Assembly: GCA_036172245.1 (NCBI GenBank)
Contig: JAYWIR010000092.1
Coordinates: 186,001-250,000 of the forward strand
Length of the DNA: 64,000 bases
Direction: 5' to 3'
DNA from: Raillietiella orientalis
Taxonomy: Eukaryota
Part shown: positions 1-64,000 of the stretch, piece after piece
Position numbering within the stretch: position 1 is the first letter of the stretch
Layout of the letters: each line of letters opens with the position of its first letter
Program-made: the position numbers and the translations under genes
Notes under the pieces: generated by a model
What the model was told of the DNA's origin: nothing
Database searches by the model: none
What the model saw: only the letters and a program-made list of their open reading frames with translations

Positions 1-2423
1 GCGGCTCCTCCCTAAGGGAGGAGATCTGAGGAGCATGAACAACTGGCGTCCCATCACAATAGTGAATGCGGACGCTAAGTTGGTGGCTAAGGTTTGGGCA
101 GAGCGTCTGGGACGGGTTGCCAACATCTTCATCAGCCCGGAACAGACATATGCTGTTCCCGGGCGAAGCATGGAGGCGAACCTTTTCCTCGCTTCCACCT
201 ACCTAGAGCTCCAACATGAAAGGAGCTTGGTGCGCAGCCGGAATTCCGGTGCGTGCGCCGCAAAGGGGTTGGATGGTCGGGTGGGTGAGGGAGCCCTTGC
301 GGTCGCAATCCACTTGCGAAAAGCATTCGATTGCGTCGACCAGAATCTCCTTCTGGTGCTTCTGGAACGCTTGGGCTTCCCAACCTCATTAGTGGCCTAT
401 CTGCGCTCCTGCTGGCGCGACGCGCTCATCAATGTTACTTTCAGCGGACAGACCGTGCACGGCGTGCCGGTGCGGCGTGCGATCCGGCAGGGAGACAGCC
501 TGAGCCGCTTGGTCTTCAGTACCTACTTTGAGTTGGTACTGAGAGCGTACAGGGGAACTCCGGCGCACCTGCCGCACGACTGTGCCGGTACGCCGGCTGT
601 TTCAGCATACGCGGACGACCTTCTGCTGCTGCTCCCTATGTCCACCCCGGCTGCGGCGGTCGAGGAGTTCTTCGACCTGCTGCATCGGGGAACCGGACTT
701 ACGGTGAACAGGGCGAAGTCGTCCGTGATGCCAGTTGGTGCGGCGTGGGCAGAGCAGCAGGACTGGGTCCGTTTTGGGATCCCCACGGTGAGGTACTTCA
801 AGTACCTTGGTGTGCCGTTGGGGGACTACTCCCCTGCGGAAGCGAGGTCCGGCTGCCTTCAAAAAGTAGAGACGGCGATCGGCCCGTTCCGAGGCGGCAG
901 GTTTTTTCTACCTGAACGGGCCGCGGTTTGGAATACGTTCGCGGCTCCTCTCCTCCGCCCCCTGCTTTTTGTTTGCCCCCCCACAGAGAGGATTGAAAAG
1001 CGGACAAAGGACCTCCTCCGTATCGCCCTTTGGGGCAACGGGAGGGCCCGAGGCCGCTTAAAGGACTCGTGCGCTCCTCGTCGGGATGGTGGTCTGGACC
1101 TCCTGACGCTGAAGCGGCTGGAGCTTCAGCTCCAGTTCCGCTTGTCGGCACTCGTTCCAGAGTTGTGGTGCACCTTTTGGTGCGTCCCTGCACGTCTTCT
1201 TCTCCAGCAAGCCACCGTCAAGACGGGACTGACGTCGTTTCTTGCACTCCGTCGCCGCGTCAACCGATGCGGACTCCAGCTACGGAGGGTGGCTGCGCTG
1301 TATCGGAAAAACCCAGGATTGCTCACCTGTCGCCCGTTTAACGGTAGTGCCTGGTTGCAGGAAACCGTTTGAACGTGGGGACAGTTCGGCATGCAACGCT
1401 CCCAACAGGAACGAAGGTTCCTGTTTGGGGGTTACAGAAGTTGCACGCTCCGCGAGATCCTGGAGGATCCAAAGAAGAGAGCGTGGGCAGGAAGAACCGC
1501 CCTCGCTGCTGCGCTGCCCTCCCTGATGGAAGATCTGGACAGCAATGTTGCGGCGAAGTGGGTGGTTACAGTAACAATCTCCGGAAAGGAGAAGAAGATA
1601 GGAGAGTGAAAGACGGGCCAGTTAACAGACGCTGCGACCCGGAGTACGCCTCCCAATGGACTTCTGCGCTGGGGCGCGCTGCTCGATGTTCCCATTGAAC
1701 ATCTGAAGTGGCCCCCGGTGCTCATGAACACTTCCGCCCTCCCCTTAAAATGGCAGGAGTCGGCTCTCCCGTTGCAGCACTGGGGACTCTTCTGCAATGC
1801 CCGCCGACACCACTGGACCTGGGGAGCGGTGGACCCCAATTGCGTCAGGTGTGGGGAACGGGAGTCCCTCCCCCACCTGCTAGTGGATTGTGTTGCCCTT
1901 CGGCCCCTTTGGTTTCGCTTTGCCGCGGCCATCGGAATCCCCTGCGGCAACCCCAGGGACGCACTGAAAGCCCTCTTCGTTGCTGACGCCCTTCGGCCAG
2001 CGGCCTCGTTAGCAGCTTTGTGCTGCCTACGCGGGATCGTCACCGCTTGGAGCAAGGCTACGGGAGGACAACGCGACCAGGGTGCCATCCAGCCAGCCTC
2101 CCAGTTTCTAAGGAGGGCGTCCCGATGGCCCCACCTGGATCCAGGAATACAGAAGGAGCTTGCCGGCATCCTGCAAAGGATGCAATGGCCCCACCAGCAA
2201 CTGTGATCCCTTCCCTTACCCTCCCAACTTTTCTTTTCTTTTTTGTTTTGTTTTTTGTTTTTCCCCCTTCCCCCTGCTGCCGTGGTGGACCGTACCGGTC
2301 CGCGAACCGGTGACCCGGCAGGCTCTGTGTTTCTTCGTGCGTGGCTGGAGCAATGGTCCAGCCACCGCACGTCTTTGTAAAAGTTTATTTTACAATAAAC
2401 GCCCCGGCGAAATCCGGCTGAAA
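1..2423 (+). mobile_element. Tx1/L1-clade non-LTR retrotransposon, copy A (family 1): RT, C-terminal Cys motif and complete 3'UTR
   Basis: ORFs 35-1372, 1391-1609 and 1718-2206 give NWRPITIVNADAK, LRKAFD, IRQGDSLS, AYADD, FKYLG, DGGL and CVRCGERESLPHLLVDC. Premature TGA codons at 1370 and 1607. Pyrimidine-rich 3'UTR ends AATAAAcgccccggcgaaatccggctgaaaa. Confidence 0.95.
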
Positions 2424-5400
2424 ATCGAACGCCTTGTGGAGATCACTGCGAGCGCTAGGGCCCCCTTCCCCGCCTGGGGTTCCCTTCTAAGCCAGGCTGG
2501 CGGCCCCAATGTGGAGTTGCCGATTTTTCCTTTCCCTTCCTTTTGACACCTCTGCGCGTGCATCCATGTGCTCGCGAAGAAGAGGTTGGCATCCATACTT
2601 CGCCCGGGAACAGCATATGTCTGCTCCGGGCTAGTTATGGATTCTGCCACTTGTTCCAGACGCGAATCACATAGCTCTGCTATGAACTTGGCGTCCTTAT
2701 TCACGATCGTGATCGGACGCCAGTTCTTTAAATCATTGAGGTCTCCCCCTTTCGGAAGGAGCCTCACTCTGGCTGATCGAAACGAGGCGGGAACAATCGC
2801 CTTCGTCTCGGTTCAGCCTGATCAACTTAAGCAACAGGGGTGCCAGCTCTTCCGCGAAGCTCTGATAGAACTCCGCGGGCAAGCCGTCTTCCCCTGGAGC
2901 TTAACGCCTCTTGAGCCTTTTGATACCGGCGAGAATTTCGCCGGTGGTAAATGGCTCGTCGAGGCCTAACATCTCCTCCTCTTCTATTTCCGGGGCGCCA
3001 TCCGGAAGCAAGCTTCGAGAGGCGTCTCGATCCGGGGGCTCCCTGGCGTAAAAACAGGAACAAAAACTCCGCCCGAGATGCCGTACCGACGCCGGGGACG
3101 AACATTCCCGGCCCTGGTCGTCCAGCAAGCTGGCCGACTTGGTTTGTTAGGCTTGGCGTTCGGCCCGGCGCGGTACTCGGCCAGGCGACGGACATTAGGG
3201 GTTCTCTTGTACCTACAAGCCTGTAAATAGGCCCGATGTTTGCAAGGACCCTTGCCGGATCCGAGGGGCAGGCGGTACAGGGGGAACTGCTCGCAGAACT
3301 CCCGGACCGAGGCCTTAAAAAGATACCTATCCGTAAGTTTCTGGAGACTGACGCCTCTCAGGAATTCGCGAAGGTGTTCCTTCGCACCTGAGAGTCGCGT
3401 CCAGTCCCCTGGCAGACGCCAGTCCCTGGATGGCGGTCCTTTGTCGCGAGGCCGCACCTCGAAAATTAACCGGGAATGGACCGACAACCTCGACGCAACT
3501 TTCCCCCGTTTGCCGACCCGTGAACACAGGTCAGCGTCGAGGAAGACGTGGTCGATGCTGCGGACCATTCCCCTCTCACCCGCGAACAAGTTGCGCGCAC
3601 GCATGGCGGCGCACAACTCGTTCATCGCGTTCACCTGTGTTTCCGGCTCACCTGTTAGCAGGCGGAGATTGAAATCTCCCGCTATCAGGTGAGCCTTCCG
3701 CACGTTCGTGTCCGCAAGCCAGTCGCGCTTCAGGGATTTTAGCAACCTGTTGCGGTCGCTGTATCCCTGTTTACCGCTGGGGGCGTACACATTCGTGACG
3801 ATCAGTTTGATCGAGTCGGACCAGCTGAGAATCAGCTGACCGACCTGACCGTCGTCATCGGAACGCACGCGCTTCACGGCAGCGTCGATTGCCGGCTTCA
3901 CGAAGAACGCGAGCCCGCAGGTGTTGCGGAGGCCGCATCGCCAATACAACCGACCCCCCGCGATCGTCTCGATCTCCTGGGCGTCTGCCGCGGTGATCAC
4001 GTGGATCTCCTGCAGCAGGGCCAGGTCGAGCTCACGCAGGGTGTCGGCCGTATCTCGCCTGTTACCGTCGCCGCGTAGCCCGTTGACGTTCCAACAGACT
4101 GCGCGAATGCGACGGCGACAGGCGAGCCCAGGTGTTACCCCTGGAAAGATGGCGATGCGGCGTCCGCCACTTGTTGGGTCGGGACGCTAGGTGGAGGAGG
4201 AGGGTCAGGCGCTTCGTGCACATGGGGTCCCTCCTCCATAGGTAACGGCGCGTCGAGCGGGTCACCCTTAGGTGAAGTCGCGCCTTCCTGTTGGCCTTCC
4301 TCCATGGGGGCGGGCTGTTCAGGCTGGGCGACTGCAGAGAGGTCTTCGCACCCCTGCTCACCCTCCTCCATGGGGGTGGCCGGCTCCACGGCTTCCGAGC
4401 GTGGGAGTTCCTTCTCCGGGAATCCCACGCTACCGCTACCTTCCTGCTTCTCCTCCTCGCTGGTGGAGGGAGGCTCCTCCTGGGTTTCTGGGACTTGCGA
4501 CCCGACTTCCTAGGGGGTGCCTCCGAGGAGGAGAATTCGCTACCGGCTCCCAGGTCCAACTCACCTGTGGGGGCTTTTATCGCGGGAGCCGGCCTTCGTC
4601 CGGCCTTGCGCAAAGGGTTCTCACGCTCGGCCAGCGTGGCCGCGAGATCCGCCGCCTGCGCGAACGCGGCGTCCTCGTTGTCGTCCGGCGCGTCTCGCGG
4701 CTCACCCTCTGTGTGCACAGAGGCTTCGCCGTCGCAAGCTCCGGGCGCGACGGAAACGGGGAGGGAAGGCTCGTAGCCTTGGGTGGCATCTTCAGGAACG
4801 ACGATACGTGCACTCGCGTAAGGTTTTCGAACGCGGCCCGGGTTTTTTTGCCTTACCGGCCGACTTCTCTTTCTTCTCCTTTAAAGAAGCTTTTTTCACT
4901 TTTCTGGCTGCTACAAGTTGCCAGCCCTCTTCACCTTCCGCCACTTGGGAAGTTTTATCCTCCGTTTTTTTTTTTGGAGGTTGAGGATCTGGCAGCTTCT
5001 GCAGGCGAGCGTCCGCCTTAGGTCTTGTGACCTTTACTGCGCGTTTCCCCTGCGCCTTTTTCGCGGCAGGAGTTACCAGGGTGAGGCGTTTTAAGCACAC
5101 ACGTGGAACGTGGCCCTTCTCCTCGCACATGTGGCATTAGATGTTGGGACACCTCTTGCGAAGATGTCCTATGGTATCGCAGTAGCCGCAATACCGAGGC
5201 TTTCCCGCGCACCAGACGTCCACGCACTTTTTCGCGACCTCCAGCTTGTGGGGAAGCCCACAATCCTTATTCACGGTTACCCACGCTGCAGCCTGGCCTC
5301 AGAAATGGCTATTAAAGCCTTCGAAGATTGTTGGTTTAGGCCAAAGCGCGTGCACCTCGCCGAACTTTCGAAGTTCTTGTGCTACTGCAGAGCGAATCAT

Positions 5401-5957
5401 ACGGCTCGTGATTCCAGTGAGATGGACCACCACGAAGCGGTCCATTGTCACCGGCAAGATCTTGCGGCCGTCGACGTTCAACGGGTTGGTTATCAGACTT
5501 TGAGCCAAGGTGATCTCCTCGCACACCACCTCGACTCGCTGACTTCCGCTGAGAAGGAACAGGCCGTCAAGATATTGTTCTTTAACTCCGGCGTTTTGCA
5601 GCGCTTTCAAAAAAACGCGTGCCGTTTTTCCATTAAATAAGGGGCCTACCTGGTACACCAAGCTGGGCTTGTACCCAGCTTCCCGATAGGCCGCCATCTC
5701 GGCCATGGTTTCCGCGCTCGGCGCGGCCGCCATGGCGCTCCAGCTCCTCGCCTTGGGCGGCGAGGGCGATTCCGGGGCGGACGCCCCTGATTCTGTAGGC
5801 TGTGGGTATGGGCAAGCCTCCCCCACACCTACCTTTATCGTGGTGTCCTCAGGCATCGCTGCCATCGGACGCCAACGATGTTCCACACCAAAAACACACT
5901 AAGAAAACCGCTTCCTGTCGACTCGCTCGGGAGCGTAGGAAAAACACGTCCACTCGC
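2424..5957 (-). mobile_element. Tx1-like copy B: 5'UTR, ORF1 (about 5865-4135) and ORF2 endonuclease/RT N-terminus, cut at KAFD by copy A
   Basis: Zinc knuckles (YCGYCD..GH..KRC, CHMCEEKGHVPRVC); endonuclease motifs WNVNG, LQEIH, NVYAP, AGDFN, IDH; RT WRPITIVN. Several frameshifts. 5' end reads gcgagtggacgtgtttt. Confidence 0.93.
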
Positions 5958-6796
5958 CAAGGGATTCGGCGACGGGCTGAGGAACGACCGGGTATACCAC
6001 CACGTCCGTCTTTACTCTAGGACTCCCGACGTTCGACGCCTGGCGGAGTATAAAGCTGGGGCTGAGCGACAGACCTGGCAATCCGGGTCGGCCAGCTTGC
6101 TGGACGCCCAAGGCCAGGAATTCTCAGCTCCGGCGAGAATAAACCGCATCCTGCGGGACTATTACTCCTCCTTGTACGCGCGTAGAACAACAGAGCGCGC
6201 CGTGGCACAGCGCTTGCTGCCGCAAGGCGCCCCCGTGCTACAGGAGGAGCAGACACATCAACTAGGGGCATTTCTCGATGGCGGAGATCGTCTCCGCCAT
6301 CGGAAAGCTCAGAAAGAGGAAAGCATCAGGAGAAGACGGTCTGTCCGCGGAGTTCTACCAAGGCTTCGTGGCGGAGCTGGCCCCCCTGGTGCATAGGCTT
6401 TGCATGCTGATCCGAGAACAAGGGGACGTCCCCAAATCGTTCCGGTCAGCTATAGTACGTCTCCTGCCGAAAGGAGGAGACAATCGCAACGTAGGCAACT
6501 GGCGTCATATCACAGTAGTGAATGCGGATGCGAAGCTGCTTGCCAAGCTTTGGGCTGAGCGACTGGGACGGGTGGCGGAATCCGAGGTGAGTCCGGAGCA
6601 GACATACGCTGTTCCCGGACGAAGCATGGAGGCCAACCTGTTCCTCGCCAGTACATGGTGGCAGTTGCAACAAAGCAAAGACCAGGGAGGTCAAGAAAAT
6701 CCTGGATTCTCTTCTGACCAGGAAGGGGACGCCCTTCATGGAAGAGCCGCGCTCGGTGCCCTTGCGGTCGCAGTCGATCTGCGAAAAGCGTTCGAT
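5958..6796 (+). mobile_element. Tx1-like copy C: internal ORF2 fragment from KGFGD to KAFD
   Basis: ORFs 5878-6396 and 6278-6835 give YYSSLYA, KASGEDG, RLLPKGG, QTYAVPGR and DLRKAFD. Bounded by the 5' end of B and the 3' end of D. Confidence 0.92.
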
Positions 6797-9508
6797 TTTC
6801 ACTTGGATTGCTTTGGGTCGTTCACTAAAAAATGAACTTTATAAAGTAATTATTAATGGCTGTGGCAATGCTCCAGCCAGAAGCTAAGAACCACGGAGCC
6901 TGCCAATTCACCGGTTTCTATACCGGTACGGTCCACCAAGGCAGCAGGGGAAAGGGGAAAAACAAAAAAAATAAACAAAAAGAAACAAAGGGTGGGAGGG
7001 AACGGGAAGGGATCACTGATGCTGCTGGGGCCGCATCATCCCTCTCAGGATGCTAACAAGCTCTTGTTCGTTGTGAACATTCAGGTGGGGCCATCGCGAC
7101 GCCCCTCCTCAGGAATTGGAAGGCGCACTGGATGGCGTCCTGATCGCTGGGTCCTCCCGTCTCCGGGCTCCATGCGACGACCATCCCACGAAGGCAGCAC
7201 AACGCTGCTATGGAGGACGCTGGACGAAGAACGTCGGCACCGAAGAAGGCTTTAAGTGCGTCCCTGGGGTTCCTGCAAGATATACCGATGGCCGCGGCAA
7301 AGCGCAACCAAAAAAGCCGAAGGGCAACACAATCCACTAGGAGGTAGGGGAGGGATTACCGTTCCCCGCACCTTACACAATTGGGATCCACCGCTCCCCA
7401 GGTCCAGTGGTGTCGACGGGCGTTGCAGGGGAGTCCCCAGTGCTGCAACAGGAATGCCTACTCTTGCCATTATAAGGAGAGGATGGAAGTGTTTATAAGA
7501 ACCGGGACCCACTTCAGATGTTCAATCGGAACATCAAGCAGCGCTCCCCAGCGCAGAAGTCCATTAGGAGGCGTATTCGGGGTCGTAGCATCAGTTAGCT
7601 GGCCCGTCTTCCACTCTCTCTGCTTCTTCTCCTTCCCGCAGATTTTTATTGTAACCTCCCACTTCGCCGCAACATCGCTGTCCTGATGTTCCACTAAGGA
7701 GTCCCGCGCAGCAGCGAGGGGGGTTATTCCTGACCACGCTTTCTTCTTAGGATCCTCCAGGATCTCACGAAGCGTGCAACTTCTGTAACACTTAAACAGG
7801 AACCTTCGTTCCTGTTGGGAGCGTTGCATGCCGAACTGTCTACACGTTCCAACGGTTTCCTGCAACCAGGCACTACTGTTCGCGGGGAGACAGGTGATCC
7901 ATTCTTGATTTTTCCTTGCCAGCGCAGCCACCCTCCGTAGCTGAAGCCTACATCGGTTGATGCAGCCTTAATGGAGTGCAAGAAACGTCGTAACTCCCGT
8001 CTAGCAGGTGGCTTGCTAAATAAGGAGACGTGCAGGGACGCACAAACAGGTGCACCACAACTCCGGCACAAGTGCCAAAATCCGGAACTGGTGCTGCAGC
8101 TCCAGCCGCTCCAATGTCATGAGGCCGAGACCACCGTCCCGACAAGGAGCGCACAAGTCCTTTAAGCGGACACGGGCCCTCTCGTTGCCCCAAAGGGCGA
8201 TACTGAGGAGGTCCTTCGTCCGGTTTTTGATCCTCTCTGTGGGGGGCAAACAAAAAGCAGGAAACGGAGAAGAGGAGCCGCGAACATGTTCCAAACTGCA
8301 GCCCGTTCAGGCACGAATAACCTGCCGCCTCGGAGCGGGCCGATAGCCATCTCTAGTTTTCAAAGGCAGCCGGACCACGCTCCCGCAGGGGAGTAGTGTC
8401 CCGAAGGCACACCAAGGTACTTGAACTGACTCACCGTGGGGATCCCCAAACGTACCCAGTCCTGCTGCCCTGCCCACGCCGCACCAACTTACATCAGGGA
8501 CGACTTCGCCCTGTTGAACGTGAGTCCGGTTCCTCGATTCAGCAGCTCGAAGAACTTCTCGACCGCCAAAACCGGGGTGGACATAGGGAGCGGTAGCAGA
8601 AGGTCGTCCGCATATGCTGAAACCGCAGGCGTTCCGGCGCATTCATGCGAAGGTGCGCTAGAGTTTCCCTGTACGCTCTCAGTACCAACTCAAAGTAGGT
8701 ACTGAAGAGCAAGGGGCTCAGGCTGTCTCCCAGCCGGTTCCCACGTCGCACCGGCACGCCGTGAACAGTCTGCCCGCTGAAAGTAAGATTGATTTGCGAA
8801 TCGCGTTAGCTGGAGCGCAGATAGGCCAATAATGAGGCCGGGAAGGCCAAGCGTTGCAAAACCTCCAGCAGGAGATTCTGATCGACGCTGTCGAATGCTT
8901 TACGCAAGTCGATCGCGACCGCAAGTGCTTACTTCCCCATGCGACAATCCTTTGAATGGCTAACGGACTCAACGGAATTATCAATGCGCATCAAGCCCCT
9001 TTCGTGTTTGAGCTCTAGCCAGGTGGAAGCGTGGAACAGGTTCGCCTCCATGCTTCGCCGGAAACAGCATACGTCTGTTCCGGGCTGATGAAGGAGTTTG
9101 CAACCCGTCCCAAGCGCTCAGCCTAATCCTTAGCCAGCAACTTGGCATCCGTGTTCACTATTGTGATGGGACGCCAGTTGTTCATGCTCCTCAGATCTCC
9201 TCCCTCAAGGAGGAGCCGCAACTTTGCCGAACGAAACGAGGCGGAAACGTCACCTGTCTCGCGTATCAGCAAAGTGAGTTGCTGTACCAGGGGGTTAGCT
9301 CAGCCGCGAAAGTTCAATAAAACTCCGCGGACAGGCCGTTCTATCCTGGAGCCTTGCGTTTCTTATGCTTTCCGATGTCCGGGATGATCTCGATCATCGT
9401 GAAAGGCTCGTCAAGAAACTTTTGCTCCTCTTCCTTGATCGCAGGAAAGCTTTCCGGAAGCAGGAGTCGTGAGAAATCCCGATCGGGAGGCGCCGTGGCG
9501 TACAGGAA
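6797..9508 (-). mobile_element. Tx1-like copy D: degenerate RT, C-terminal region and 3'UTR
   Basis: Minus-strand fragments homologous to A (GDSLSPLLFSTYFELVL, DGGLGL, NGLLRWGALLDVP); its 3'UTR matches that of A. Confidence 0.92.
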
Positions 9509-9530
9509 GCGTGCGGACGTGTTTCTTCTG
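9509..9530 (+). promoter_or_regulatory. Conserved 5'-end motif GCGWGYGGACGTGTTT (DPE-like internal promoter element)
   Basis: Same motif at the 5' ends of B (5940-5957, minus), 32416-32432 (minus) and a variant in G (63141-63156, minus); matches the RGWCGTG downstream promoter consensus. Confidence 0.6.
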
Positions 9531-9675
9531 CGCTCCTGCCGCACTAGTTTTCTAAGCCTTTTTTTCTATTGTGTTAGTGCGTGGTGCATCGCCGGTGTCC
9601 CATGGCAGGAATGCCTAAGGACAACGCGATGGAAGCAGGCGGAAGAGAGGATGGTTCTTCTCCCCAACCCACAGA

Positions 9676-9842
9676 GGTGGGGGCAACCGCCCCCACGGAG
9701 GAGAGGGCAACCGGCCCCTTGAAAAAGTAGGCAACCGCCTCTCCGGAGACGAGGGCTACCGCCACCTTAAAAAAGGGTGCAACCGCCCTCGTGGAAAAGG
9801 GCGCAACCGCTCCCTTGAAAAAGGGGGCAACCGCGTCTTCGG
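9676..9842 (+). repeat. 24-bp coding minisatellite (about 7 units, GATAPLKK-like) in the ORF1 N-terminus of E
   Basis: Repeated ggggcaaccgc(t/c)cccttgaaaaag-like units. Confidence 0.9.
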
Positions 9843-12800
9843 ATCCGTCTGCTCCATCCACGAGGACCTGGAGCTCCGTGGCTGCAGCGCCATCTCCTGC
9901 AGCCTTAGCAGAACAGCGCGCCTACCTTGAACAAGGATACAAGCCGTCCTTGATTTACAAGGTAGGAAATCTGTTTGTGGGAAACACCGCTCCTAACTTT
10001 AAAAGAGAGTTTCAGCGGTCGGATGTAAAAGAGGAAGACCTGGAAGGTCTCTCCGTGATGAGTGGGGGCCAGCGGGTGGAGCTAACTTGCAAAAATGCAA
10101 GTCTGGCTCAACGCCTGCTGTACACTCCTATCACTCTGGAAGGCCGAAAGGTCTTCCCTGTAACGGAGGACCGCTCCATTGTTGCACACCTAACCGGTGT
10201 TACTCTTCGCATGACCAAAGCTGGCGTGCAGGAAGAGTTGCAAACACATGGTACGGTACACGCGCTCTGGACCAAGCCGAACGTCTTCCAAACATACGGA
10301 AGACTGTTCAGTGGCATGCCTGCAGCGCGTGTGACGGTCCACGAAAACGGTGGGCTGCTTCACAAACTCGACGTCGGCAACGAGGTCGTCGACGTCTGAT
10401 ACGTGGGCAAGCTCAAGTACTGTGGGCACTGTGATGCAACAGGGCACCTGAAAAAACGGTGCCCCCACATCCAGTGCTTCCACTGAGCCGAAAAGGGCCA
10501 CCTGCGGAAGGTGTGTCCTAAACGCGAAACCCCGGCTCCCCCTGCTTTGAAAAAAGCCAAAGGGAAACGCGCGGGGCGATCGGACAAGCCTAAGGAGGCA
10601 CCTGAGAGGCGGAACCCACAGCCAGAGCCCGAACCCGTGCTGCAAGCGCCGGTGGAGGGTACTCCCGACGACGCTGGAGAGAGCGAGGGCTGGCATGAGG
10701 CGAAGCCTAAAAGGAAAAAAATAAAGAATACCGAAGAACCGACAGCGGAACCCGCGACATCTTCTTTAAATAGGAGACAACGCCGCGCGTTGCTCGGCGA
10801 ATGTTCGTTCACTTTGGAGCGTGTGGAGGTCCCCGAGACCGTCACCGGGGGAGATATCCCCCGCCTCGTTGACGACGAAGTCGCGACCGCGGAAGGCGAA
10901 CCCTCTGTGCAAACAGAGGGGGAGCCCAGCGACGCGTTCGCCGCAATCGAGGACGCCGCCTTCCAGCAGGCGGGGGAAGAGCTCGCGGCCGAACTCGCTG
11001 AGCGTGAGAACGGCGCACGAAAGGCCTTGCGAAGGCCGGCCGCGAGCAAGGCACCTCCGACAGGTGACTACGAACCGGATGCCGGAAGTGCGTCCTCCTC
11101 CGCGGAGGCGCCTTCGAAGAAGACTGGACGGAAGTCCAAGAATCCCAAGAGGCGCATCCCGACAAAGCAGGAGGGGACGCACCGGCATCCGAGGGGGAAG
11201 CCGGCAGCGTGGGAACGGAGGGAGGGATTTTCCCACCCTCTGCTACGGAGCAACTGGCGACCCCCATGGAGGAGGGGGATAAGGTAAGCGATTGCCGTCC
11301 CCTCCCAACGGTGGAGCCTGCTCAGGAGATAGCCATGGAAGAGGGGGAGCAGACAGCTGACAAGCGCTCCCCCCTGCCGTCCAGCGCAGCCGACGAATCG
11401 GCCCTTATGAAAGAGGGGGAGCAGGTGCGTGAAACCCGCCCCCTTAAACCGTTGCGGTCCGCCGAGGAATCGGCCCCTATGGAGGAGGGAGAACCGGTGC
11501 GCGGTGATCCCCTTCCTCCATCCGTCCCTTTCGACCAGGTGCCGGGCGCTTCATTATCACTTTCCCAGAAATAAAACCTGGGCCCGCCTGTCGTCGTCGA
11601 TTACGCGTGGCCTGCAGGAACGTCAACGGGCTGCGCGACGACGGCCACAGACGGGACACGGCCTCCACCCTGCGTGACTTCGACCTGGCGCTCCTGCAGG
11701 AGATCCACGTGATCACCGCGGAGAACGCCCAGGAGATCGAAAGGATCGCAGGGGAGCGGCTTGTGTGGCAATGCGGCGCCCGCAAAACCTGTGGGGTCGC
11801 GATTCTTCATGAAGCCGGCGGTCGACGCAGCCGTGAAGGGCGTGCACTTCGACGAAGCCGGTCGTATCGGCCTGCTGATTCTCAGGTGGTCCCACGCTAT
11901 TGACTTCGTCTTTACAAACGTGTATGCCTCGAGCGGTCCTGCCAGGTACCAGGAACGTGCGGCGTTCCTGGAAACCCTGAAGCGCGACTGGCTGGTGGAA
12001 GCGAACGTGCGCAGGGTTCACCTGATTGCTGGCGATTTCAACCTGCGCCTGCTCTCAGGTGATGCCCACGCACAGGTACGGACAGCCAACGAGTTGTGCG
12101 CTGCCATGCGCACGCGCAACTTGTTGGGGGATCTCCCGGGAATGGCCAACAGCATCGACTATTTTTTCCTGGATGCTGACCTGCGTTCACGGGTCGGCAA
12201 TCGGGGGAGAGTTGCGTCGACGCTGCGAACCATTCCCGGCTAATTATCGAGGTATGCCCTCGCTACAAGGGTCCCCCTTCCAGGGCGTGGCGGCTGCCTG
12301 GGGACTGGACGCGACTCTCATGTGCGAAAGAACATCTTCGCCAATTCCTGAGAGGCGTCACCCTCCGGAATCTCGCTGATTGAGACCTTTTAAAGGCCTC
12401 GGTCCGCGAGTTCTGCGAGGAGTTCCCTTGCACCGCCTGCCCCTCGGATTTGGGGATTGGGTCCGTAACGAACGGGCGTATTTGTATGCCCGCCGTTACG
12501 CAAAGACCCCCAACATCCGTCGCCTGGCGAAGTATCGAGCCAAGGCCGAACGTCAAGCCTGGCAATCCGGGTAGGCCAGCTTGCTGGACGACCAGGGCCG
12601 GGAGCACTCGGCTCCGGCTAGAATACGGCACCTCGTGCGGTGTTATTATTCCTCCCTTTACGCCAAGGCACCTCGGGAACAAAATGCCTCTCGGCGCTTG
12701 CTTCCGGATGGTGCTTCGGCAATAGGGAAGGAAGAGAAGGAAAGCCTGGACGAGCCTTTTATTACCGGCGAAATTCTCGCCGGTATCGAAAGGCTCAAGA

Positions 12801-36580: not shown

Positions 36581-36639
36581 TCCTGATGTAGCAGCCAGTG
36601 CCATTCTTACAGAGGCGAGCAATTCTGCTCCGTACATGA

Positions 36640-56619: not shown

Positions 56620-59600
56620 CAATACTTTGAGCCGCGAATCAGGTTCATTGAATCGGCAGGAGAGGAGCAATCTCCCGACGGTCAAGAAGGTGACTCCGTT
56701 GCCGCCTTTAAAAGGCGTAGGGAACGCAGCTCCCCTAGAGAACGCAGCGAAAATCCCGGAGGTTTCCGCAACTACTGTCGCGAAAGCCTCCGAAAATCGC
56801 GAAGGCGAATGTAAGGTTGTGTAAAGGAGGAAAGAAAAATCTCCAAAAGAAGCTTCGCAACATCCATCTTTGAGCTCTTCCAAAGGAAAAAGCAGTCGCG
56901 CGAATACGAAACCACGCGCAGCTTGTGCCTCTTCCCAGGAAAAAGCCAGCGCCTCCAACGCGTGCAAGTCCGCTTCTGTAACCACCGAGAAGACCATTCC
57001 GGTGCAATCGGACGGATGCAAGCTTTCGTCGATCGTGCGAGCATCAGACTCCGTAAAGGAGTCCCATTGCGCCGCTGAACGACGCGTTACTCGCCCGGGA
57101 GCGAGCGCCCGCTGGGTTGAAGCCCTAAGGCGTGACACACTCACCGCAGAACGGCGAGTGCTTACCCCGGAATCCACAGGTTCTGCACCCGGGGAGGAGC
57201 ACTCGATTACGTGCAGCACATTCGAGGCCGGTGGCGACCGCGCCCTCCAGCCCGTCGTGCTGCTTACCTCCCGCTTGCCGGGTGAGGCGAGCACGCTTTC
57301 CCAGCCGCGATCAGGGCAATCGCGTCTTCTCGTCGTGTTGTTGTGACGTCTTGGACCGTCAACGGGCTTCAACACGACGAGAAGAGGCAACTAGTGGCTC
57401 ACGCTCTGCGCGCCTGCGACTTGACGCTCCTGCAGGAGATTCACAGCATCTCCGAAGAGCAGGCTGCCGAAATCGAACGGCGCGCGGGCGGAACGCTACT
57501 TCATAGGTGCGGCGTTGCGCGTACGTGCGGCGTCGCTTTCCTCGTGTGAGGAACTTTGGCGGGAGCGGTGCGCAGCGTTCGTTTCGACACGGAAGGTCGA
57601 GTGGGACAGCTTGTACTCAAGTGGTTGGACTCGATCGACCTTGTCGTAACCAACGTGTACGCGCCGAGCGGTGCTGGACGATGGGCCGAAAGGATTGAGT
57701 TCTTCGGTACCCTTCAAAGTTAGTGGCTCACTCGATCGCACCCTACTGTGGCCCATCTCATTGCGGGGGAATTCAACGTCCACCTGCTTTCCGAGAATAG
57801 ATCCCACAAAAGGGAAAAGTTCCTACCAAAAGAGATGTGCGCGTCCGTCCACGCGTGCAACTTGTTCGCTAGCGACAATGTTATGCTAGCAAATTCGGAC
57901 CACGTTTACCTTGAACAACACTTGCTCTCTCAAGTGGGTGGGAGAGGGCCCGTGCCGTCCGTGCTTTCAGACCACAACAGGCTCGAGTTCAAGTTTCTCC
58001 CGCCAGGCAAGGGGCTTCCAAACTGTTTTTGGACGATGCCGGCAGACTGGCTGAGCCACCCGGAGGCGGCTGAGCGTCTTTGCCAGTACCTCCTTGGCTC
58101 TGCCATAAGTGAGCTCGAGGACTGCGACGATCTGAAAAGATCGGTCCGCGAGTTCTGCTGACGGTTTCACTTGCACCAGCTTCGGCGCGGCTTCGGAGAG
58201 GGCGTACTTAACAGCAGAGATTTTCTGCAGGCCCGCTCCTTTTCCAGGCGCGCGGACGTTGGTCGATTATCCGAGTACAAGGCCAAGGCCGAGCGCCAGG
58301 TCTGGCAGTCAGGGGCGACAGTTCTGCTCGACGACCAGGACCGGGAATGCTCGGCTCCAGCCGACGTGCGACGGATAGTCAGGCGCTATTACTCTTCTCT
58401 GTATGCAGAGGCACCAACGGAACGCAGCCTTTCCCGGCTGCTCCTGCCGATTGATGCACCTGTTCTAGACGAGGAGGAACGCGCGCGTCTTGATGAGCCC
58501 TTCACGGCAGAGGGAATTTCCTCGGCCATCTCGGGGCTCAAGAAACGAAAAGCGCAAGGCGAAGATGGGTTCCCCGCGGAATTCTTCCAGTGTTTTGCGG
58601 CGGAGCTCATCCTCCTGGTGCTCCAACTCTCGTCGCTGATGCGAGACTCGGGCGATGTACCCGCCTCGTTTCGATCAGCAAATGTGCGTCTACTGCCGAA
58701 TTTTGGAGATTTGCGCCAACTGAACAACGGGCGTCCGATCACATCAGTGAATTCGGATGTCAAGTTGTTGTCGAAACTTCGGGTGGCGCGGATGGGTAGG
58801 ATCGCGGAATCCTTGTTAAGTCCGGATCAGACGTACGCTGTTCCTGAACGGTCCATGGACGCAAATCTCTTGTTCATCCGCACATGGCTGCAATTGCAGC
58901 ATCGTGTGGCGGTGGATCGTCGTGCGGAAGCGACGCCTTCGATCTCTCACCGACGGAGGCGCGGGACGCAAAGGGAGACACCGGGAGCCTTGGCGGTTGC
59001 AGTCGATTTGCACAAAGCTTCCGATTGCGTGAACCAAAAGCTTCTTCTTGAGCTTTAGGAACGTCTGGGTCTTCCGGCAACCCTGTTGGCGTACTTGCGC
59101 TTCTGCTGGCGCCACGCGATTACACCTTATTTTTCAGTGGCTGTCGCATGAACGGCGTGCCGTTACGACGAGTAATTAGGCAGGGTGACAGCTTAAGCCC
59201 GCTGCTCTTCAGCATCTATTTTGAATTGGGGCTGAAGGCTTACAGGCTGACGCTAGCCAACCTGCCGAGCTCCTGTCCAGGTACGCCCGCCGTGGCAGCC
59301 TATGCCGACGACCTGCTTCTCCTGTTGCCCATGTCCACCCCGGCGACATCGCTTGAAGACTTCTTTGAGTTGATTCGTCGCGGTGCGGGCGTGAGCGTTA
59401 ACAGGAGTAAGTGTATGGTTGTTCCGGTGGGTGCGATGTGGGAGCGGCAGTCCGACTGGATTGGCCTGGGGATCCCCACGGGCAGGTACCTCAGGTACCT
59501 TGGCGTGCCGTTGGGCGACCTCTGCATCTCAGAAGCGTGGTCGGACTGCCTTCGGAAGGCAGAGCGTGCACTTGGCCCATTTTCAGGAGGCCAGTTAGTC

Positions 59601-61230
59601 TTGTCGAAACGGGCCTGCTACTGGAACACCTTCGTTGCCCCCCTCCTCCGCCCCCTGTTTTTTGTTGGTCCACCCCCACAGGAACTCGAAGTCTGGGCGC
59701 AGCGCCTTCTACGCAAAGCGTTGTGGGGTGCTGCAAGATCCCGTGTTAGACTTAAAGACTTGGTGGCGCTGCGTCAGGATGCAGGCTTGGGCATCCTCGA
59801 CTTAAACAGCATCGAACTGCAGGTGCAGTTTCGCATGCTGCGGCCCTGTGCCAAGCTGTGGTGTATGCCTTGGTGCTTACCCGCACGCCTTATACTGAGA
59901 CGCTGCACGGGAAGCGAGGGACTGCTTTCGTTGCTACCCTACTTTCGACACACCAGAATAGAGTTTCGCTTCCCGCTGAGGCAGCTGTCCTCACTGCTGG
60001 AAGCTCAAAGCTGGATCTTCTGCCGCCCCATGAACATTAATGCATGGCGGCAGGAATCTTTTTCATCGTGGGCAGCTTCCGAAGGATCGCGCTTGGAATA
60101 TCTTCACGCCTGCGAGTTCTCATTCATCAAGTGGACGAAGTCATGCAGGACAACAAGATGTCGGATCGTCTGGCCGCCACATCACTCGCCGCAGCGCTGT
60201 CTGCCCTCAGGGCAAGCAACGACGGTTGCCTACCGGCGGAATGGGAATTCTCCGGCAAAAAAGCGGGAGTCAGTAAGCTCCTCGGCAGCTGGACGACAAA
60301 GGAGCTGGTGCAAGCCGCCACTCCTCGGAATGGGGCGAAGGGCCTTCTTCGGTGGAGAGAACATTTATGTGTGCCTCCCGAAGAGGTATTGGTTCTCCTC
60401 GTTTGTTTCGACAGCTCCGTTTCCCCCTTAAAGAGGAAACAAGATGTGTTTCTCTTTTTACATTGTGCTATTCACTGTAATAGCCAGCCAAGCATCGTTT
60501 CCGGGGGAGCTGCTTTGCCAAACTGTTCAAGGTGCGGAGAGATCGAGTCTTTTCCGCACCTTTTGCTGGACTGCGTTGACCTCCGGGAACTGTGGCGAAG
60601 GCTCCCTTCGGCCATCATGCCACAAGGAGGCACTGCCATTGATGTGCAGCGGCGCTTCTTCAGCAGAAATGGACTTTTGATTGGCGCGATTGTCGCAACC
60701 ATGTGTTGCGTTCGCGCCATCGTGAAGGCCCGCTACGCCCTGGAGTTGTCAGCGCAGCGAAGGGAGGCTCAGCTGCTTGCAGCTTAATTCATGGAGAAGG
60801 CTTCAAGGTGGTCTCATCTTCGTGACAAGGTGAAAGAGGACATCACCAGCATACATCGCCAGTTTACAGATCTTTCAGAACGGCGTAATCCGGTCACCCC
60901 TGTTACCTCTTGCCCACCCATACCCCGTGCCCGTTCGCTTGGTAAAATTTCCGGTGCCCATGCTTTTATTCCCGTGTCTTCCAGAGCGATCCCAAAGACC
61001 CTTATCCCGTCCTGCTTATTGATTGTTTTTATTTTATTCTGGTTTCTTTGTGTTCCCCGCCCCACCATACCGTTCGCAAAACTGTTATTGTGGCCTCCGT
61101 GCCAGTAATATTCTCTTCATTCTTGTTCAGTCGTCAGTTGGGAGTTTGGTTCCTAACTGGTTTATTTTGTATAATTGCTTTTTTTGGTTATGTTATATGG
61201 AATAAACGCCCCGGCGTGACCGGGTGAGAA
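56620..61230 (+). mobile_element. Copy H: ORF1 C-terminus, near-complete disrupted ORF2 (about 57300-60880) and 3'UTR
   Basis: WTVNG, LQEIH, NVYAP, LSDH, KAQGEDG, IRQGDSLSPLLF, YADD, RYLG, CSRCGEIESFPHLLLDC; ends aataaacgccccggcgtgaccgggtgagaa. Confidence 0.94.
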
Positions 61231-63162
61231 ATCTTTTGCGCTTGTTCTGCGGAGATCACGTGGATCTCCTGCAGCAGCGCAAGGTCGTAGGACTCCAGAA
61301 GGGCGGCCATGTCTCGTCTCCTGCCTGCGTCTGTCATGCCGTTCACGTTCCAAACGGCGATGCGCAGACGACGGCAGGAGGAGATTCCCGGCATTACTGC
61401 TGGGAAGATTAAGGTGTGGGGGAGCCCGCCTCTTGCGAGGCGGGCGGGATGTCCATGGGGGTTTCGGCCTTCTCAGGCACCTGAGGCACCTGTTCGGCCT
61501 CCACCTCCTCCATCCCCTCCGTGTCCGCGCGTGGGAGTCTCTCGGGCGAGGGGACCCGAGAGTTTCCCACGCTCATGGCACCCTCGCTTGCGGAAGCCAT
61601 CTCTTCCCCTTCGACGGGGGAGACGAGCTTCCTTGGCTTTGTGGACTTACGTCCAGCCTTCTTGCGCGGTGCCGTGGAAACGCAGGCTGCGCTTCCGGCC
61701 TCCACCTCGGGGTCGGAAGTGCGGGACTACTGAGGGGAGGCCGGACGCCTTACGGCCTTCTTGCCAGCCTTGGAGGGTTCTGTCTGCAACGAAGCTGCCA
61801 GCTCCTCCGCGGCTCGCGCGAAGGCTACGTCGTCGATGGTGGTGTCGATGACGGACGCCGCCGCCGGCTCGCTCCCCTCGCTGTTGACTGTGTCAACCGA
61901 GGGGAGGTCGTCGGTAGCGGCGAGCTCTTTCCGGCAGCGTTCGGCAACATCGAGAACGCGTTCGACAACGACGCTGCACTCTTTAATTATCGCGCTACCC
62001 TGCTCTTTCTTCTTCTGTTGGTAGGCGATTTTCTTTTCCATCCTCCTCTCCTTCTTTGATTTTTTGGCCGTAGCCACCTGCCACCCAGGCTCCTGGCTTG
62101 TTCCCTCGACTTGTTCGGCGTTGTTCGTCGGGGTCTCGGTTGCGGCCGGGGCCTTGGGCGCGGGTGGCACAGCCTTCGCGGCAGCTTTCGCCGCCAGTCT
62201 TTTCTGCAGAAGCCGGGCGCGTTTTTTAAGGTTTCTCTTGGAAACCACCCGCACTGCTGCTTTTGGGCACACCTCCCTCGTGTGGCCCATTGTGCCGCAT
62301 ACTTGGCACTGCACATTGGGACACCTCTTTTTGAGGTGGCCCGACGTATTGCAATAGCCACAGTATTTCGGCTTCCCCACATACCAGAGGTCGACGGTTT
62401 CGCCTTTGACCACCAGTTTGTGGGGAAGAGTGCAGCCCTCCCGAACGGTCACGCGCGCAGCAGTGAGGCCGTGTTGCAGCCCCGTGTAGTCCTCGAAAGG
62501 ACTAACTTTCGTCCACTGCGCGTGGACCGTTCCGAACTGTTCCAAAGCGGCGCCAACCTGTTCTTTGCGTATTCGCGCGGTTACGCCTAACAGGTGGACC
62601 ACCATGCTGCGGTCCGCCGTAGTGGGGAGGAGCCTGCGCTTCCCCATCACAACAAGGGTTTTAAGCAGTCGTTGGGCCAGCTCTGCATGTTCGCAGATGA
62701 CCTCAACGTACTGACCCCCGCTGCGGATGGTCATAGCGCTAAGCTCCTCCTCTTTCACATCGACAGCGCGCATGCCCTTCGAGAAGGCGCGCGCTCTCTA
62801 AAGAATATAAATTGCCTACCTTGTAGAACAATGAGGGGTTGTACCCCTCCTCTACATAGGCCGACAATTCCGCCGCGGCTGCAGGCGATGGCGCCGACAC
62901 AACGGCGCTCCACGCCCGCGCTGCAGCGGGGACCGATTCTGTGGGGGCGGATGCCCCCACCTCCATCGCCTCTGGGGGCGACGTTGCCGCCGCCCCCTGG
63001 CTCTCCATCGCCTCTGGGGGCGGCGTTGCCGCTGTCCCCTGGCCATCCCTGGTGGTCGCGTCAGGCATCTCTGCCTGATCGACCACCGAACCACACGACG
63101 CTTGCACTGGGGGAGACTTCCTGGCACGAGGAGCACCGAGAAAACGCGTCCACCCTGGAGCA
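61231..63162 (-). mobile_element. Copy G: 5'UTR, ORF1 (about 63071-61409) and ORF2 start, cut in the endonuclease by copy H
   Basis: YNPSLFYKVG, KYCGYCNTSGHLKKRC..CQVCGTMGHTREVC; MPGISSCRRLRIAVWNVNG..LQEIH. Confidence 0.93.
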
Positions 63163-64000
63163 CGCAAGCCGGTCGACTGCGTCGACCAGGATCTCCTTCT
63201 GGAGCTCCTGGAACGCATGGGTTTCCCGTCCGTGCTCCGGTCTAACCTGCGTTCCTGCTGGCGCAACGCGTATATAAATATTGGTTTCAGCGGCCTGCAC
63301 GTGTACGGCGTGCCAGTTCGCCGCGGCATCCGGCAGGGTGACAGTTTGAACCCTTTGCTCTTCAGCATCTACTTCGAGTTGGTGCTGAGGGCATACAGGG
63401 TAACTCTGGCAACACTACCGAGCTCGTGTGCCGGCACGCCAGCCGTGTCGGCCTATGCAGATGATCTTCTGCTGCTGCTTCCTGGGTTCACCCCGGCAAG
63501 TGCACTCGAGGAATTCTTCGAGTTGCTGCGCCGCGGGACGGGCCTGGAGGAGAACAGGGCGAAGGCAACGATGGCTTGTGTTGGCTCGGCGTGGGCTGGA
63601 CGGTCGGACTGGATCCGCTTGGGGATCCCCACGTGCAGGTGCTTCAAGTACCTTGGCGTTCCGTTGGGGGAATACTGCGCAGCAGAAGCCTGGTCCGACC
63701 GTCTCCAAAAGGCAGCGTTGGCGATCGGTTTGTTCCAAGAAACCAAGTTCTACCTGCAGAAACAGGCCGCGGTGTGGAACGCGTTTGCGGTTCCCCTTTT
63801 TCGCCTTCTCCAAAGGGAGGTCCCGTGTGAGGCTCAAAGACTTGTGCGCTCCACTTAAGGACGGTGGACTTGGCGTACTTACGCTGGAGCGCATGGAACT
63901 GCAACTCCAGTTCAGGACTCCCGCCCTCGCGGCCGAATTGTGGGATACGCCTTGGTGCGTTCCAGCACGCTTCCTGGCCCAACGAACCTGCGGATCTGGC
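63163..64000 (+). mobile_element. Copy O: family-1 RT from motif A onward
   Basis: cgcaagccggtcgactgcgtcgaccag (RKPVDCVDQ, equivalent to RKAFDCVDQ), IRQGDSLNPLLF, AYADD, KYLG. Confidence 0.93.

Follow-up and report, generated by a model that had tools for sequence, protein, structure and literature searches.

A nest of related non-LTR retrotransposons

The window, that is, the whole 64-kb stretch of DNA analysed here, is a nest of related non-LTR retrotransposons that encode APE and RT and show an L1/Tx1-type architecture. ORF2 consists of an N-terminal APE, the RT and a C-terminal zinc-binding region, and upstream of it lies ORF1, an ORF1-like frame without a Pfam family that is common to at least seven copies. 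Pfam domains were found as follows: RVT_1 in A (E 3.6e-18), in the N-terminal RT stubs of B and C, and in O; Exo_endo_phos in B and 48k; zf-RVT in k47. This domain architecture fits an assignment to L1/Tx1, but since the combination of APE, RT and zinc-binding region is common to the L1 clade, it does not discriminate Tx1 from L1. The closest database proteins are fish 'pol-like' or RT-domain proteins with 26-32% identity, and a search of long proteins with the APE query gave no match.

Complete termini can be recognised by a canonical 3' end, AATAAACGCCCCGG-loop-CCGGGTGARAA, and by a full-length 5' terminus, G[TC]GGACGTGTTTT. The copies and their roles as invader or host are:

1..2424, + strand: A, invader; from the start of the RT through the canonical 3' end, with the window start cutting it off; 3' tail ...CCGGCTGAAAA with its end at 2424; own KAFD intact at 320-331
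2425..5953, - strand: B, host of A and also invader of C; 5' end (5953), ORF1, APE and RT N-terminus, stops at the KAFD codons (2425); Exo_endo_phos, RVT_1 stub and ORF1 homology; 5' terminus GTGGACGTGTTTT ends at 5953; KAFD at 2435-2424, - strand
5954..6796, + strand: C, fragment between the linker hot spot (TCGCCAAGGGATTCGGCGAC...) and the KAFD codons (6785-6796); RVT_1 stub; a host that was entered by B (5' junction) and by D (3' junction)
6797..9512, - strand: D, invader of C and host of F; linker hot spot to canonical 3' end, which is CpG-decayed, with the tail ...CCAAGTGAAAA; starts with ACGCTTCCTGTACGCCACGGCGCC, adjoining the 5' end of F
9513..13436, + strand: F, invader that entered D at the linker site; extends from a full-length 5' end as far as RT residue ~161; 5' terminus GCGGACGTGTTTC at 9513; KAFD intact at 13272-13283
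28690..29329, - strand: k29i, invader; comprises a full-length 5' end plus a portion of ORF1 (by homology); 5' terminus GTGGACGTGTATTCTC ends at 29329, then a 7-nt filler (29330-29336)
29337..30894, + strand: k29h, host; RT from GCATAAGGCGTTCCAC (H-K-A-F-H) into the C-terminal region
36640..36865, + strand: k36, 5'-truncated copy of ~210 bp, 3' UTR only, ends at 36848
46657..47876, + strand: k47, ORF2 C-terminus (zf-RVT) to canonical 3' end ...CCGGGTGAAAA at 47876
47877..49249, + strand: 48k, host; ORF1 C-terminus and APE, stops at the linker hot spot ...CAGGTTTCGGCGA(T); Exo_endo_phos, and tblastn with the B APE query 5-311
49250..50543, - strand: k49, invader of 48k at the linker; RT C-terminal part to 3' end ...CCGGGTGGCA
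57200..61231 (5' limit not fixed), + strand: N; APE, RT, C-terminus and canonical 3' end ...CCGGGTGAGAAA; KASD intact at 59014; inserted antisense in the APE of G at ~codon 81
61232..63162, - strand: G, invader of O; 5' terminus at 63153, 9-nt filler, ORF1, and APE to ~codon 81
63163..64000, + strand: O, host; RT from CGCAAGCCGGTCGAC (R-K-P-V-D), cut by the window end; RVT_1, and tblastn with the A RT query 106-321

The region also contains an inverted duplicate (22403-24029 vs 34953-36580, 96.5% identical) and a head-to-tail pair at 32.4 kb.

Within the 64-kb window 10 junctions join one element to another. Seven of them lie at one of two positions, the K-A-F-D codons of RT motif A or a site in the linker between APE and RT, and nine are antisense, including all seven at the hot spots relative to the ORF of the host. 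Canonical 3' ends are present six times in the window, twice at KAFD, once at the linker and once at a KAFD-like site in non-element DNA. These counts come from a single window, which is possibly an atypical nest.

Junctions at RT motif A and at the APE-RT linker

A preliminary description of this DNA had claimed three junctions at the KAFD codons (A/B, C/D and G/O), each with the invader antisense to its host. All three are present in the sequence where they had been placed, and the orientation holds for 3/3. At A/B (2424|2425), A (+) ends with ...AATAAACGCCCCGGCGAAATCCGGCTGAAAA and is followed by TCGAACGCCTTGTGG, which is the reverse complement of ...CAC AAG GCG TTC GA(T) of B; the T/A placement at this joint is ambiguous by 1 nt. 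At C/D (6796|6797), C (+) ends with ...CGA AAA GCG TTC GA(T), and past 6796 follows the reverse complement of the D tail ...CCAAGTGAAAA. In both cases a canonical 3' tail meets antisense K-A-F-D codons at the identical nucleotide, the hosts at the 3' ends of A and D stopping at ...AAGGCGTTCGA(T) and ...AAAGCGTTCGA(T), respectively.

The third junction, G/O, preserves a 5' end. Here GTGGACGCGTTTT (- strand), the conserved 5' terminus of G, extends to 63153, the RT homology of O begins at 63163 with CGC AAG CCG GTC GAC TGC GTC GAC CAG (RKPVDCVDQ), and the 9 nt in between (63154-63162) are of uncertain origin. Since O begins 15 nt upstream of the stop point of B and C, the claim that all three junctions fall at the same ORF2 codons stands for the codons, but the phosphodiester bond at G/O is a different one. 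A target-site duplication of 15 bp predicts exactly this earlier resumption of the host (R-K-A-F-D). Beyond the three junctions first noticed, a fourth KAFD junction was found at 29329/29337, where k29i has entered k29h; next to the 5' termini of G and k29i the hosts resume at CGCAAGCCGGTCGAC and GCATAAGGCGTTCCAC. Altogether, 4 of the 11 RT copies that span the KAFD position are broken exactly there; the seven uninterrupted copies include F with AAAGCGTTCGAC.

A second hot spot lies in the linker between APE and RT at the codons G-F-G-D (...TTCGGCGA^). In one alignment, this site takes three antisense junctions (49249/50, 5953/4 and 9512/3), and half of the family copies that span it (3/6) are broken there. 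The 3' end of k49 is placed after ...GGTTTCGGCGA(T) of 48k, while TCGCCAAGGGATTCGGCGAC of C and ACGCTTCCTGTACGCCACGGCGCC of D are preceded by B and F, respectively, each with a full-length 5' end. The KAFD and linker sequences have little in common beyond TTCG and CGA^T, and a single specificity may therefore not explain both hot spots.

Three of the six canonical 3' ends lie neither at KAFD nor at the linker. N has inserted antisense into the APE of G, and a further off-site antisense insertion places the element E in ORF1 of the copy 50k. The 3' flank of k47 is ORF1 of 48k in sense orientation, the sole sense junction of the window. Behind the end of k36 at 36848, in non-element DNA, stands the KAFD-like sequence TCGATTGCTTAATGCAC, which matches TCGAACGCYTT at 8/11 positions (empirical p 0.007); a search of this flank for RT similarity found none, and no target-site duplication was recognised by eye between 36581-36640 and 36849-36880. 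The flank of k47 has AACGCC in common with the target (p 0.04), while in an ungapped test the flanks of k49 and N are unlike the KAFD target (p 0.93 and 0.38). Taken together, the four non-KAFD flanks give a Fisher-combined p of 0.019 for target likeness, with a target consensus that was built from two of the six flanks and in a register that was picked after inspection of the flanks. A candidate junction at the 5' terminus of k32 (32428) was rejected as a KAFD site, since its 32-nt spacer, which ends with CTTGCGA, is no closer to KAFD than shuffled controls (p 0.17-0.84 vs seven hosts).

As to KAFD as a target, the recurrent and independent antisense insertions bear out the preliminary description, but with 2/6 canonical 3' ends KAFD is not the sole target. 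The off-site insertions also bear on how a site is chosen. Targeting could be guided by homology if the sense RNA of the invader paired with the antisense strand of a relative and formed an R-loop, so that the displaced sense strand of the host, nicked at a small number of fragile or preferred positions, would prime reverse transcription. Such a process implies that every insertion is antisense to a related host, and in fact 9/10 element-in-element junctions are antisense, including N in the APE of G and E in ORF1 of 50k, the hosts are all related to their invaders, and the two hot spots have only a short motif in common. However, k36 lies in non-element DNA beside a KAFD-like sequence, k47 is in sense orientation, the DNA identity of host and invader around the sites (50-65%) is poor for stable RNA-DNA pairing, and recurrence at the exact nucleotide is more typical of a nuclease site. 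We therefore regard guidance by homology as unlikely. The flanks of k36 and k47 and the combined p value suggest that a sequence may be recognised rather than mere homology.

Independence of the insertion events

The preliminary description had taken A and D for distinct copies and had named descent of the junctions from one duplicated ancestral event, with congruent phylogenies of hosts and invaders, as a finding that would contradict recurrence. A and D are indeed distinct, with 2021 of 2418 aligned bases identical (83.6%), and the comparison of both sides argues against one duplicated event: the hosts B and C are only 61.2% (980 nt) or 67.2% (330 nt) identical, which differs from the A-D value with a Fisher p of 1e-41 for the 980 nt and of 5e-6 for the same 330-nt region. 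Likewise, G and k29i are 69.8% identical vs 58.1% for their hosts O and k29h (p 5e-5), and O and k29h each resemble another copy more than one another, O being 73.1% identical to A and k29h 70.6% to N. At the linker, B and F are 75.9-78.3% identical vs 65.0% for C and D (p 0.003 to 4e-6), and B is nearer to the uninterrupted F (78%) than to C. This unequal divergence of invaders and hosts makes the junction pairs independent of each other.

The same values bear on the possibility that the recurrence is only apparent, segmental or inverted duplication having multiplied one or two ancestral nested insertions. Some features of the window would be expected from such copying: A/B and D/C are mirror images 4 kb apart, the self-blastn alignment of 1..2464 with 9219..6755 (A vs D) extends 40 bp across both junctions, and a 96.5% identical inverted duplicate is present elsewhere in the region. 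A duplication nevertheless needs equal divergence on both sides, and in all three comparisons (A-D vs B-C, G/O vs k29, B/C vs F/D) the two sides differ significantly; in addition, B, O and k29h are each closer to a copy other than the partner that a common duplication would give them. We consider this explanation highly improbable.

Chance also offers little to account for the clustering. The odds that two independent hits in a ~5.8-kb element coincide in nucleotide and strand are ~1 in 10^4. In a simulation of 2,000,000 sets of 11 random junctions, 0.23% of the sets had three junctions within 25 bp on one strand, and 0.0015% had four.

Two further origins of the structures were rejected. In L1-type twin priming an inverted internal segment would lie against the 5'-truncated start of the sense segment, both belonging to one copy, and the poly(A) or 3' end would adjoin the target; here the antisense fragment borders on a canonical 3' tail or on a full-length 5' terminus, and A and B are different copies that are 63.8% identical over their 330-nt overlap. 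The 3' transduction of a composite element was dismissed on the basis of structure and of the unequal divergence.

Since the region consists almost wholly of repeats, a misjoining of repeats at a conserved motif during assembly had to be considered as well. Independent sequence data came from contigs of run X1 in Logan (possibly DNA; share 0.09), which were aligned to 1-13600 at 90% likeness and gave 169 short contig pieces, 90-99% alike; joints at a likeness below 95 may stem from repeats. None of the eight pieces listed, out of 180, bridges 2424/2425 or 6796/6797, which is compatible with an artefact. One piece of 357 nt covers 2425-2776 and stops at the A/B junction, and one contig joins 6797 to 13350, which we read as a probable C-like paralogue whose RT continues past KAFD. 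The X1 data thus neither confirm nor contradict the junctions. A metagenome scan for the pattern of tail plus target returned 65 loci, all of them chance matches in which only 21-26 nt align and with no tblastn match to the RT. Against an artefact speaks the structure of the joints themselves: a 3' tail and an antisense coding sequence have no homology at the joint and so give an assembler no cause to link them, the copies, at 58-84%, are diverged and not collapsed, the joints respect genuine termini (canonical tail, conserved 5' start), and the same architecture occurs seven times with different partners. We give the artefact very little credence. Taken together, the structure and divergence of the copies support the reading that related elements were entered in antisense at RT motif A repeatedly and independently.

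Site choice and comparison with known systems

The positions of the junctions, their orientation, their recurrence and their independence can be read directly from the window, and they suggest that these elements may, perhaps also outside the window, prefer two short conserved coding sequences of one another, with the hot-spot insertions antisense. We propose that an endonuclease with a site preference (...CGA^T) probably nicks related LINEs in conserved coding sequence and that target-primed reverse transcription then follows. In a first step, the endonuclease, as the putative determinant of site choice, would nick the sense strand of the host after ...TTCGA^T (K-A-F-D, RT motif A) or after ...TTCGGCGA^T/C (G-F-G-D, APE-RT linker). 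The freed 3'-OH would then prime reverse transcription at the 3' tail of the RNA, ...CCGGGTGARAA, and because priming occurs from the sense strand of the host, the new copy would lie antisense to it. A second nick in the other strand, 15-16 nt (KAFD) or 19-22 nt (linker) away and after ...GCG(A)^, would yield a target-site duplication that covers R/H-K-A-F-D. The putative first-strand nick contexts are TCGA^T (x3), GGCGA^T, AAGA^T and AGCG^T, and those of the second strand are TTGGCGA^, TTGCG^, AAGCGT^ and TTATGC^, plus TTGCGA^ at k32. The predicted duplication of 15-16 bp at KAFD and 19-22 bp at the linker combines 3' and 5' junctions of different events, since no single insertion (0) has both ends inside the window. 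Fillers of 7-9 nt at the 5' junctions of k29i and G are unexplained by the model.

Each insertion would destroy ORF2 of the host copy. Since the targets are multicopy and are kept constant through selection on active elements, relatives would offer a renewable landing site, and targeting its own kind may in this sense provide a 'safe harbour'. A more specific reading, which we consider possible but doubtful, is that two sister LINE lineages attack each other: elements of the A/D type would enter KAFD of the B type, and elements of the B/F type the G-F-G-D linker of the A/D type, the sites being quasi-palindromic (TCG...CGA) and both strands being nicked by one ...CGA^ specificity. A and D went to KAFD (2/2) and B and F to the linker (2/2), numbers too small for testing; for want of overlap between the preserved portions, G and k29i are not comparable with A and D, and k49 is not comparable with B and F. 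Such a choice of site by lineage would be a parasitism of retrotransposon on retrotransposon, the target being conserved because the victims themselves depend on a functional RT; it would limit itself and build LINE nests.

Returning to the endonuclease model as a whole, site-specific LINEs are known to land in multicopy genes of the host and in microsatellites, with transposons of other classes as additional targets in the Tx1 clade. R1 and R2 insert into 28S rDNA, Keno into U2 snRNA genes, Mutsu into 5S rDNA, and Kibi and Koshi into microsatellites. These site-specific LINEs are named in PMC4494074 and elsewhere in the literature, and they resemble the elements described here in a conserved multicopy landing site, a fixed orientation and a defined nick position. 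Their targets, however, are host genes or simple repeats that the host maintains, whereas the target here would be maintained by selection on retrotransposons, and unlike the classical site-specific LINEs each insertion would inactivate a competitor or relative. With two sites and additional off-site insertions, the specificity also looks looser than that of the classical LINEs.

If the model is correct, a group of LINEs that prefers conserved coding motifs of its own relatives represents a new target class, one that is maintained by selection on transposons and not on the host and in which every insertion disables a competitor. This would bear on the regulation of and competition between LINE families, on the formation of dense LINE nests and on the evolution of endonuclease specificity, and the short defined DNA targets (~15-20 bp) could be used for the biochemistry of the APE-type nuclease.

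Closer parallels are found in the Tx1 clade, in which a preference of families for specific sites within other transposons is known (PMC4494074). Tx1L of Xenopus laevis inserts into the DNA transposon Tx1D (PMC4494074) and is thus likewise a LINE of the APE type with a specific landing site in a mobile element, where it gives composite or nested copies; as that paper describes it, the Tx1L target is a non-autonomous piggyBac-type DNA transposon, whereas here protein-coding motifs of related LINEs are hit in antisense. The crocodilian families Tx1-Mar, Tx1-9_AMi, Tx1-8_Crp and Tx1-4_AMi prefer a defined position in other transposons, and the targets of crocodilian Tx1 families include Mariner-N4_AMi, Harbinger and LTR retrotransposons (PMC4494074). 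Unlike here, none of the targets listed in that source is a non-LTR element or of the family's own kind. At the Mariner-N4_AMi target, SINEU-3 shows a target-site duplication of ~16 bp, and tandem SINEU-3 insertions sandwich the duplication (PMC4494074), which compares with the 15-16 bp predicted here and with the head-to-tail pair at 32.4 kb. A search of the literature, with most subscription journals and Repbase Reports outside it, yielded no case of a LINE that targets the RT coding sequence of a LINE.

For crocodilian genomes, target specificity was assigned where more than 20% of flanks genome-wide carry the target (PMC4494074, 'Target Analysis'); in this window alone, two of six 3' ends lie at KAFD. 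Of the features of the target-specific class, recurrence at the same nucleotide and a fixed orientation are found in the window at four KAFD and three linker junctions. Our preferred reading is that elements of a known kind probably use a class of target that is new.

Retrotransposon content of the window

The window (G+C content 51.5%) is dense with pieces of non-LTR retrotransposons encoding APE and RT. On either strand many stop-to-stop frames match Pfam RVT_1, Exo_endo_phos or zf-RVT, and an ORF1-like frame without Pfam family is present in at least seven copies. Judged from this domain content the architecture is of the L1/Tx1 type, and the Tx1 clade name is only putative. The nearest database proteins, fish 'pol-like' or RT-domain proteins, are 26-32% identical (71 matches, long proteins), and an APE query against long proteins gave no match. 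Copy E represents a distinct family, with an RT protein about 32% identical to that of copy A and a further copy at 42440-44032; the E terminus, ...AGCTTTATTCA, has no canonical tail. At ~51393 this end (-) breaks an ORF1 fragment (50548-51385, +) which is 90% identical to the ORF1 of copy B (4514-5334), the closest family pair in the window.

Just ahead of TGARAA the canonical 3' tail contains a hairpin (CCCGG, 5-8 nt loop, CCGGG), predicted in five of six copies (2405-2420, 36828-36843, 47856-47870, 49255-49270, 61211-61226) and decayed in copy D. In the truncated copy k36 both sides have changed with pairing kept (CCTGG...CCAGG). Folding gives weak z-scores (-0.25 to -1.77). The hairpin could be the stem-loop that the RT of a stringent-type LINE recognises. 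The departures of the D tail (6797-6831) from the consensus are mainly CG-to-CA or CG-to-TG (CCGGCG to CCAAAG, CCGG to CCAA), a pattern that points to decay of methylated CpG in the source genome.

Among the large repeats of the window the youngest is an inverted pair of 1.6 kb (22403-24029 / 34953-36580, 96.5% identical) with no RT/APE similarity and no Pfam match in the ORFs tried, which may be another mobile element. Next to one copy is a piece of RT interrupted at residue ~199 (24026), and k36 lies 60 bp downstream of the other.

Junctions at RT motif A and their independence

The three junctions at the KAFD codons of RT motif A reported in the preliminary description (2424, 6796 and 63163) are all present in the sequence. 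The conserved 5' start G[TC]GGACG[TC]GTTTT, defined from the aligned 5' regions of five copies, exposed a second 5' junction (k29i/k29h); 4 of the 11 RT copies spanning this position are broken exactly there.

Copies broken or read through at KAFD:
2424/2425: invader A (+), canonical tail AATAAACGCCCCGGCGAAATCCGGCTGAAAA, then reverse complement of host B, ...CAC AAG GCG TTC GA(T)
6796/6797: host C (+), ends ...CGA AAA GCG TTC GA(T), then reverse complement of the CpG-decayed tail of invader D
63153/63163: conserved 5' terminus of invader G (-) stops at 63153; 9 nt; RT of host O resumes at 63163, CGC AAG CCG GTC GAC TGC GTC GAC CAG
29329/29337: invader k29i (-) stops at 29329; 7 nt of filler; host k29h (+) restarts at 29337, GCATAAGGCGTTCCAC (H-K-A-F-H)
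320 (A), 13272 (F), 8901 (D, -), 59014 (N, KASD): uninterrupted motif, then C/S-V-D-Q
53049 (E, -): motif followed by S-I-D-H

Since the uninterrupted copies read on past KAFD, B and C are truly broken there. A join of host sense strand to the complement of the invader 3' tail is expected when a nicked host sense strand serves as primer. Host O starts 15 nt ahead of the position at which B and C end, as expected from a 15-bp target-site duplication over R-K-A-F-D in antisense insertion by target-primed reverse transcription. At their own motif A the invader-type copies A (320-331) and D (8890-8901) carry AAA GCA TTC GA-, and GCG TTC is found in the interrupted hosts B (2425-2435), C (6785-6796) and k29h as well as in the uninterrupted F (13272-13283); this difference could come from CpG decay, and the copies are too few to tie targeting to the third position of the Ala codon. 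Within 13415-13765, F itself stops at RT residue ~161 (13436), where it meets the interior of a minus-strand fragment of the ORF2 C-terminus; neither side is an element terminus, and deletion or recombination seems a likelier origin of the break than insertion.

A self-alignment of 1..2464 with 9219..6755 (83.7%) crosses both 3' junctions, and a single duplicated event therefore had to be excluded. In global alignments the invaders A and D are 83.6% identical (2021/2418), whereas the hosts B and C share 61.2% (585/956) over 980 nt (Fisher p = 1e-41) and 67.2% (213/317) over the 330 nt ahead of KAFD, where A and D share 82.7% (p = 5e-6); B resembles the uninterrupted F (78.3%) more than it does C. 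Had a junction been duplicated, or a composite retrotransposed, its two sides would have diverged to the same extent; A/B and C/D are therefore not one copied event, the possibility that the preliminary description had raised against itself. The k29i/k29h junction is likewise independent of G/O, since hosts (58.1%) and invaders (69.8%) differ in identity (p = 5e-5) and O is nearer to A (73.1%), k29h to N (70.6%).

A second hot spot and the remaining insertions

In an alignment of the linker between APE and RT (six copies) three further junctions coincide at host codons of about L-G-F-G-D, GGATTCGGCGA[CT].

Junctions at the linker site:
49249/49250: 3' end of k49 (-) adjoins 48k (+), ending ...CAGGTTTCGGCGA(T)
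5953/5954: full-length 5' end of B at 5953; C starts TCGCCAAGGGATTCGGCGAC at 5954
9513/9512: full-length 5' end of F at 9513; D starts ACGCTTCCTGTACGCCACGGCGCC at 9512

All three are antisense, taken together they point to a duplication of some 19-22 bp, and three of the six family copies spanning the site are broken there. B/C and F/D are not one event, because B and F are 75.9-78.3% identical and C and D 65.0%.

Six canonical 3' ends are present in the window: A and D at KAFD (2/6), k49 (49250) at the linker site (1/6), N (61231) antisense in the APE of G at about codon 81, k47 (47876) in sense orientation in the ORF1 of 48k, and k36 (36848), a truncated copy of ~210 bp in DNA without RT similarity, flanked by TCGATTGCTTAATGCAC, which is similar to the KAFD site in reverse complement. 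When the flanks were scored for likeness to TCGAACGCYTT, all positions of the window serving as the null, k36 (p = 0.007), k47 (p = 0.04), k49 (p = 0.93) and N (p = 0.38) gave a Fisher-combined p of 0.019. This lends modest support to a KAFD-like sequence preference, as the two remaining flanks had supplied the consensus and its register was picked after inspection.

Including the end of E against the ORF1 fragment 50k, 7 of 10 element-in-element junctions lie at the two hot spots and 9 of 10 are antisense. Of 2,000,000 simulations that placed 11 random junctions on a 5.8-kb element with two strands, 0.0015% had four within 25 bp. Both ends of a single insertion were not found in the 64-kb window; among the contig pieces listed along 1-13600 (8 of 180) from X1, the only public sequencing run found (9% of words), none bridged or contradicted the junctions, and a metagenome scan for the junction pattern returned chance matches only.

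On the minus strand, within 32414-32480, the full-length 5' terminus of k32 (32428) follows a 32-nt spacer with CTTGCGA at its end; ahead of the spacer, on that strand, lies a 3'-UTR-like piece (CTTGTACCAC...AATAAACGCC). Head-to-tail tandems like this one have been reported for site-specific elements. No significant likeness to the KAFD region was seen in the spacer.

Proposed target preference and comparison with known LINEs

The nick contexts on the host sense strand are TCGA^T (three times), GGCGA^T, AAGA^T and AGCG^T, and the second-strand nicks, as deduced, would be TTGGCGA^, TTGCG^, AAGCGT^ and TTATGC^, with TTGCGA^ at k32; both hot spots are thereby flanked by inverted TCG...CGA. We propose that a site-preferring APE nuclease would cut after ...CGA on both strands, with RT motif A and the linker motif as its best natural sites. 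The main rival, homology-guided targeting through an R-loop, would account for the near-universal antisense orientation, but would leave k36 in non-element DNA and the sense-oriented k47 unexplained. Within this one window, the four KAFD junctions and their unequal divergences support the view that RT motif A of related elements has been targeted repeatedly, independently and in antisense orientation, as first described; as to KAFD being the target, the specificity is broader, including the linker and off-site insertions.

A full-text literature search with partial coverage of the relevant literature returned no case of a LINE targeting a LINE or its own coding sequence. LINEs that target other transposons are already known, since Tx1-clade families are described, in the part of PMC4494074 considered here, with targets in piggyBac-type Tx1D, Mariner-N4_AMi, Harbinger and LTR retrotransposons, as well as microsatellites and small RNA genes; SINEU-3 elements with the same Mariner-N4_AMi target form a ~16-bp duplication and tandem copies (PMC4494074). 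The Tx1-clade targets named in that part include neither LINEs nor coding sequence of the targeting family itself, whereas at the two hot spots in the window elements lie in the coding sequence of their relatives.
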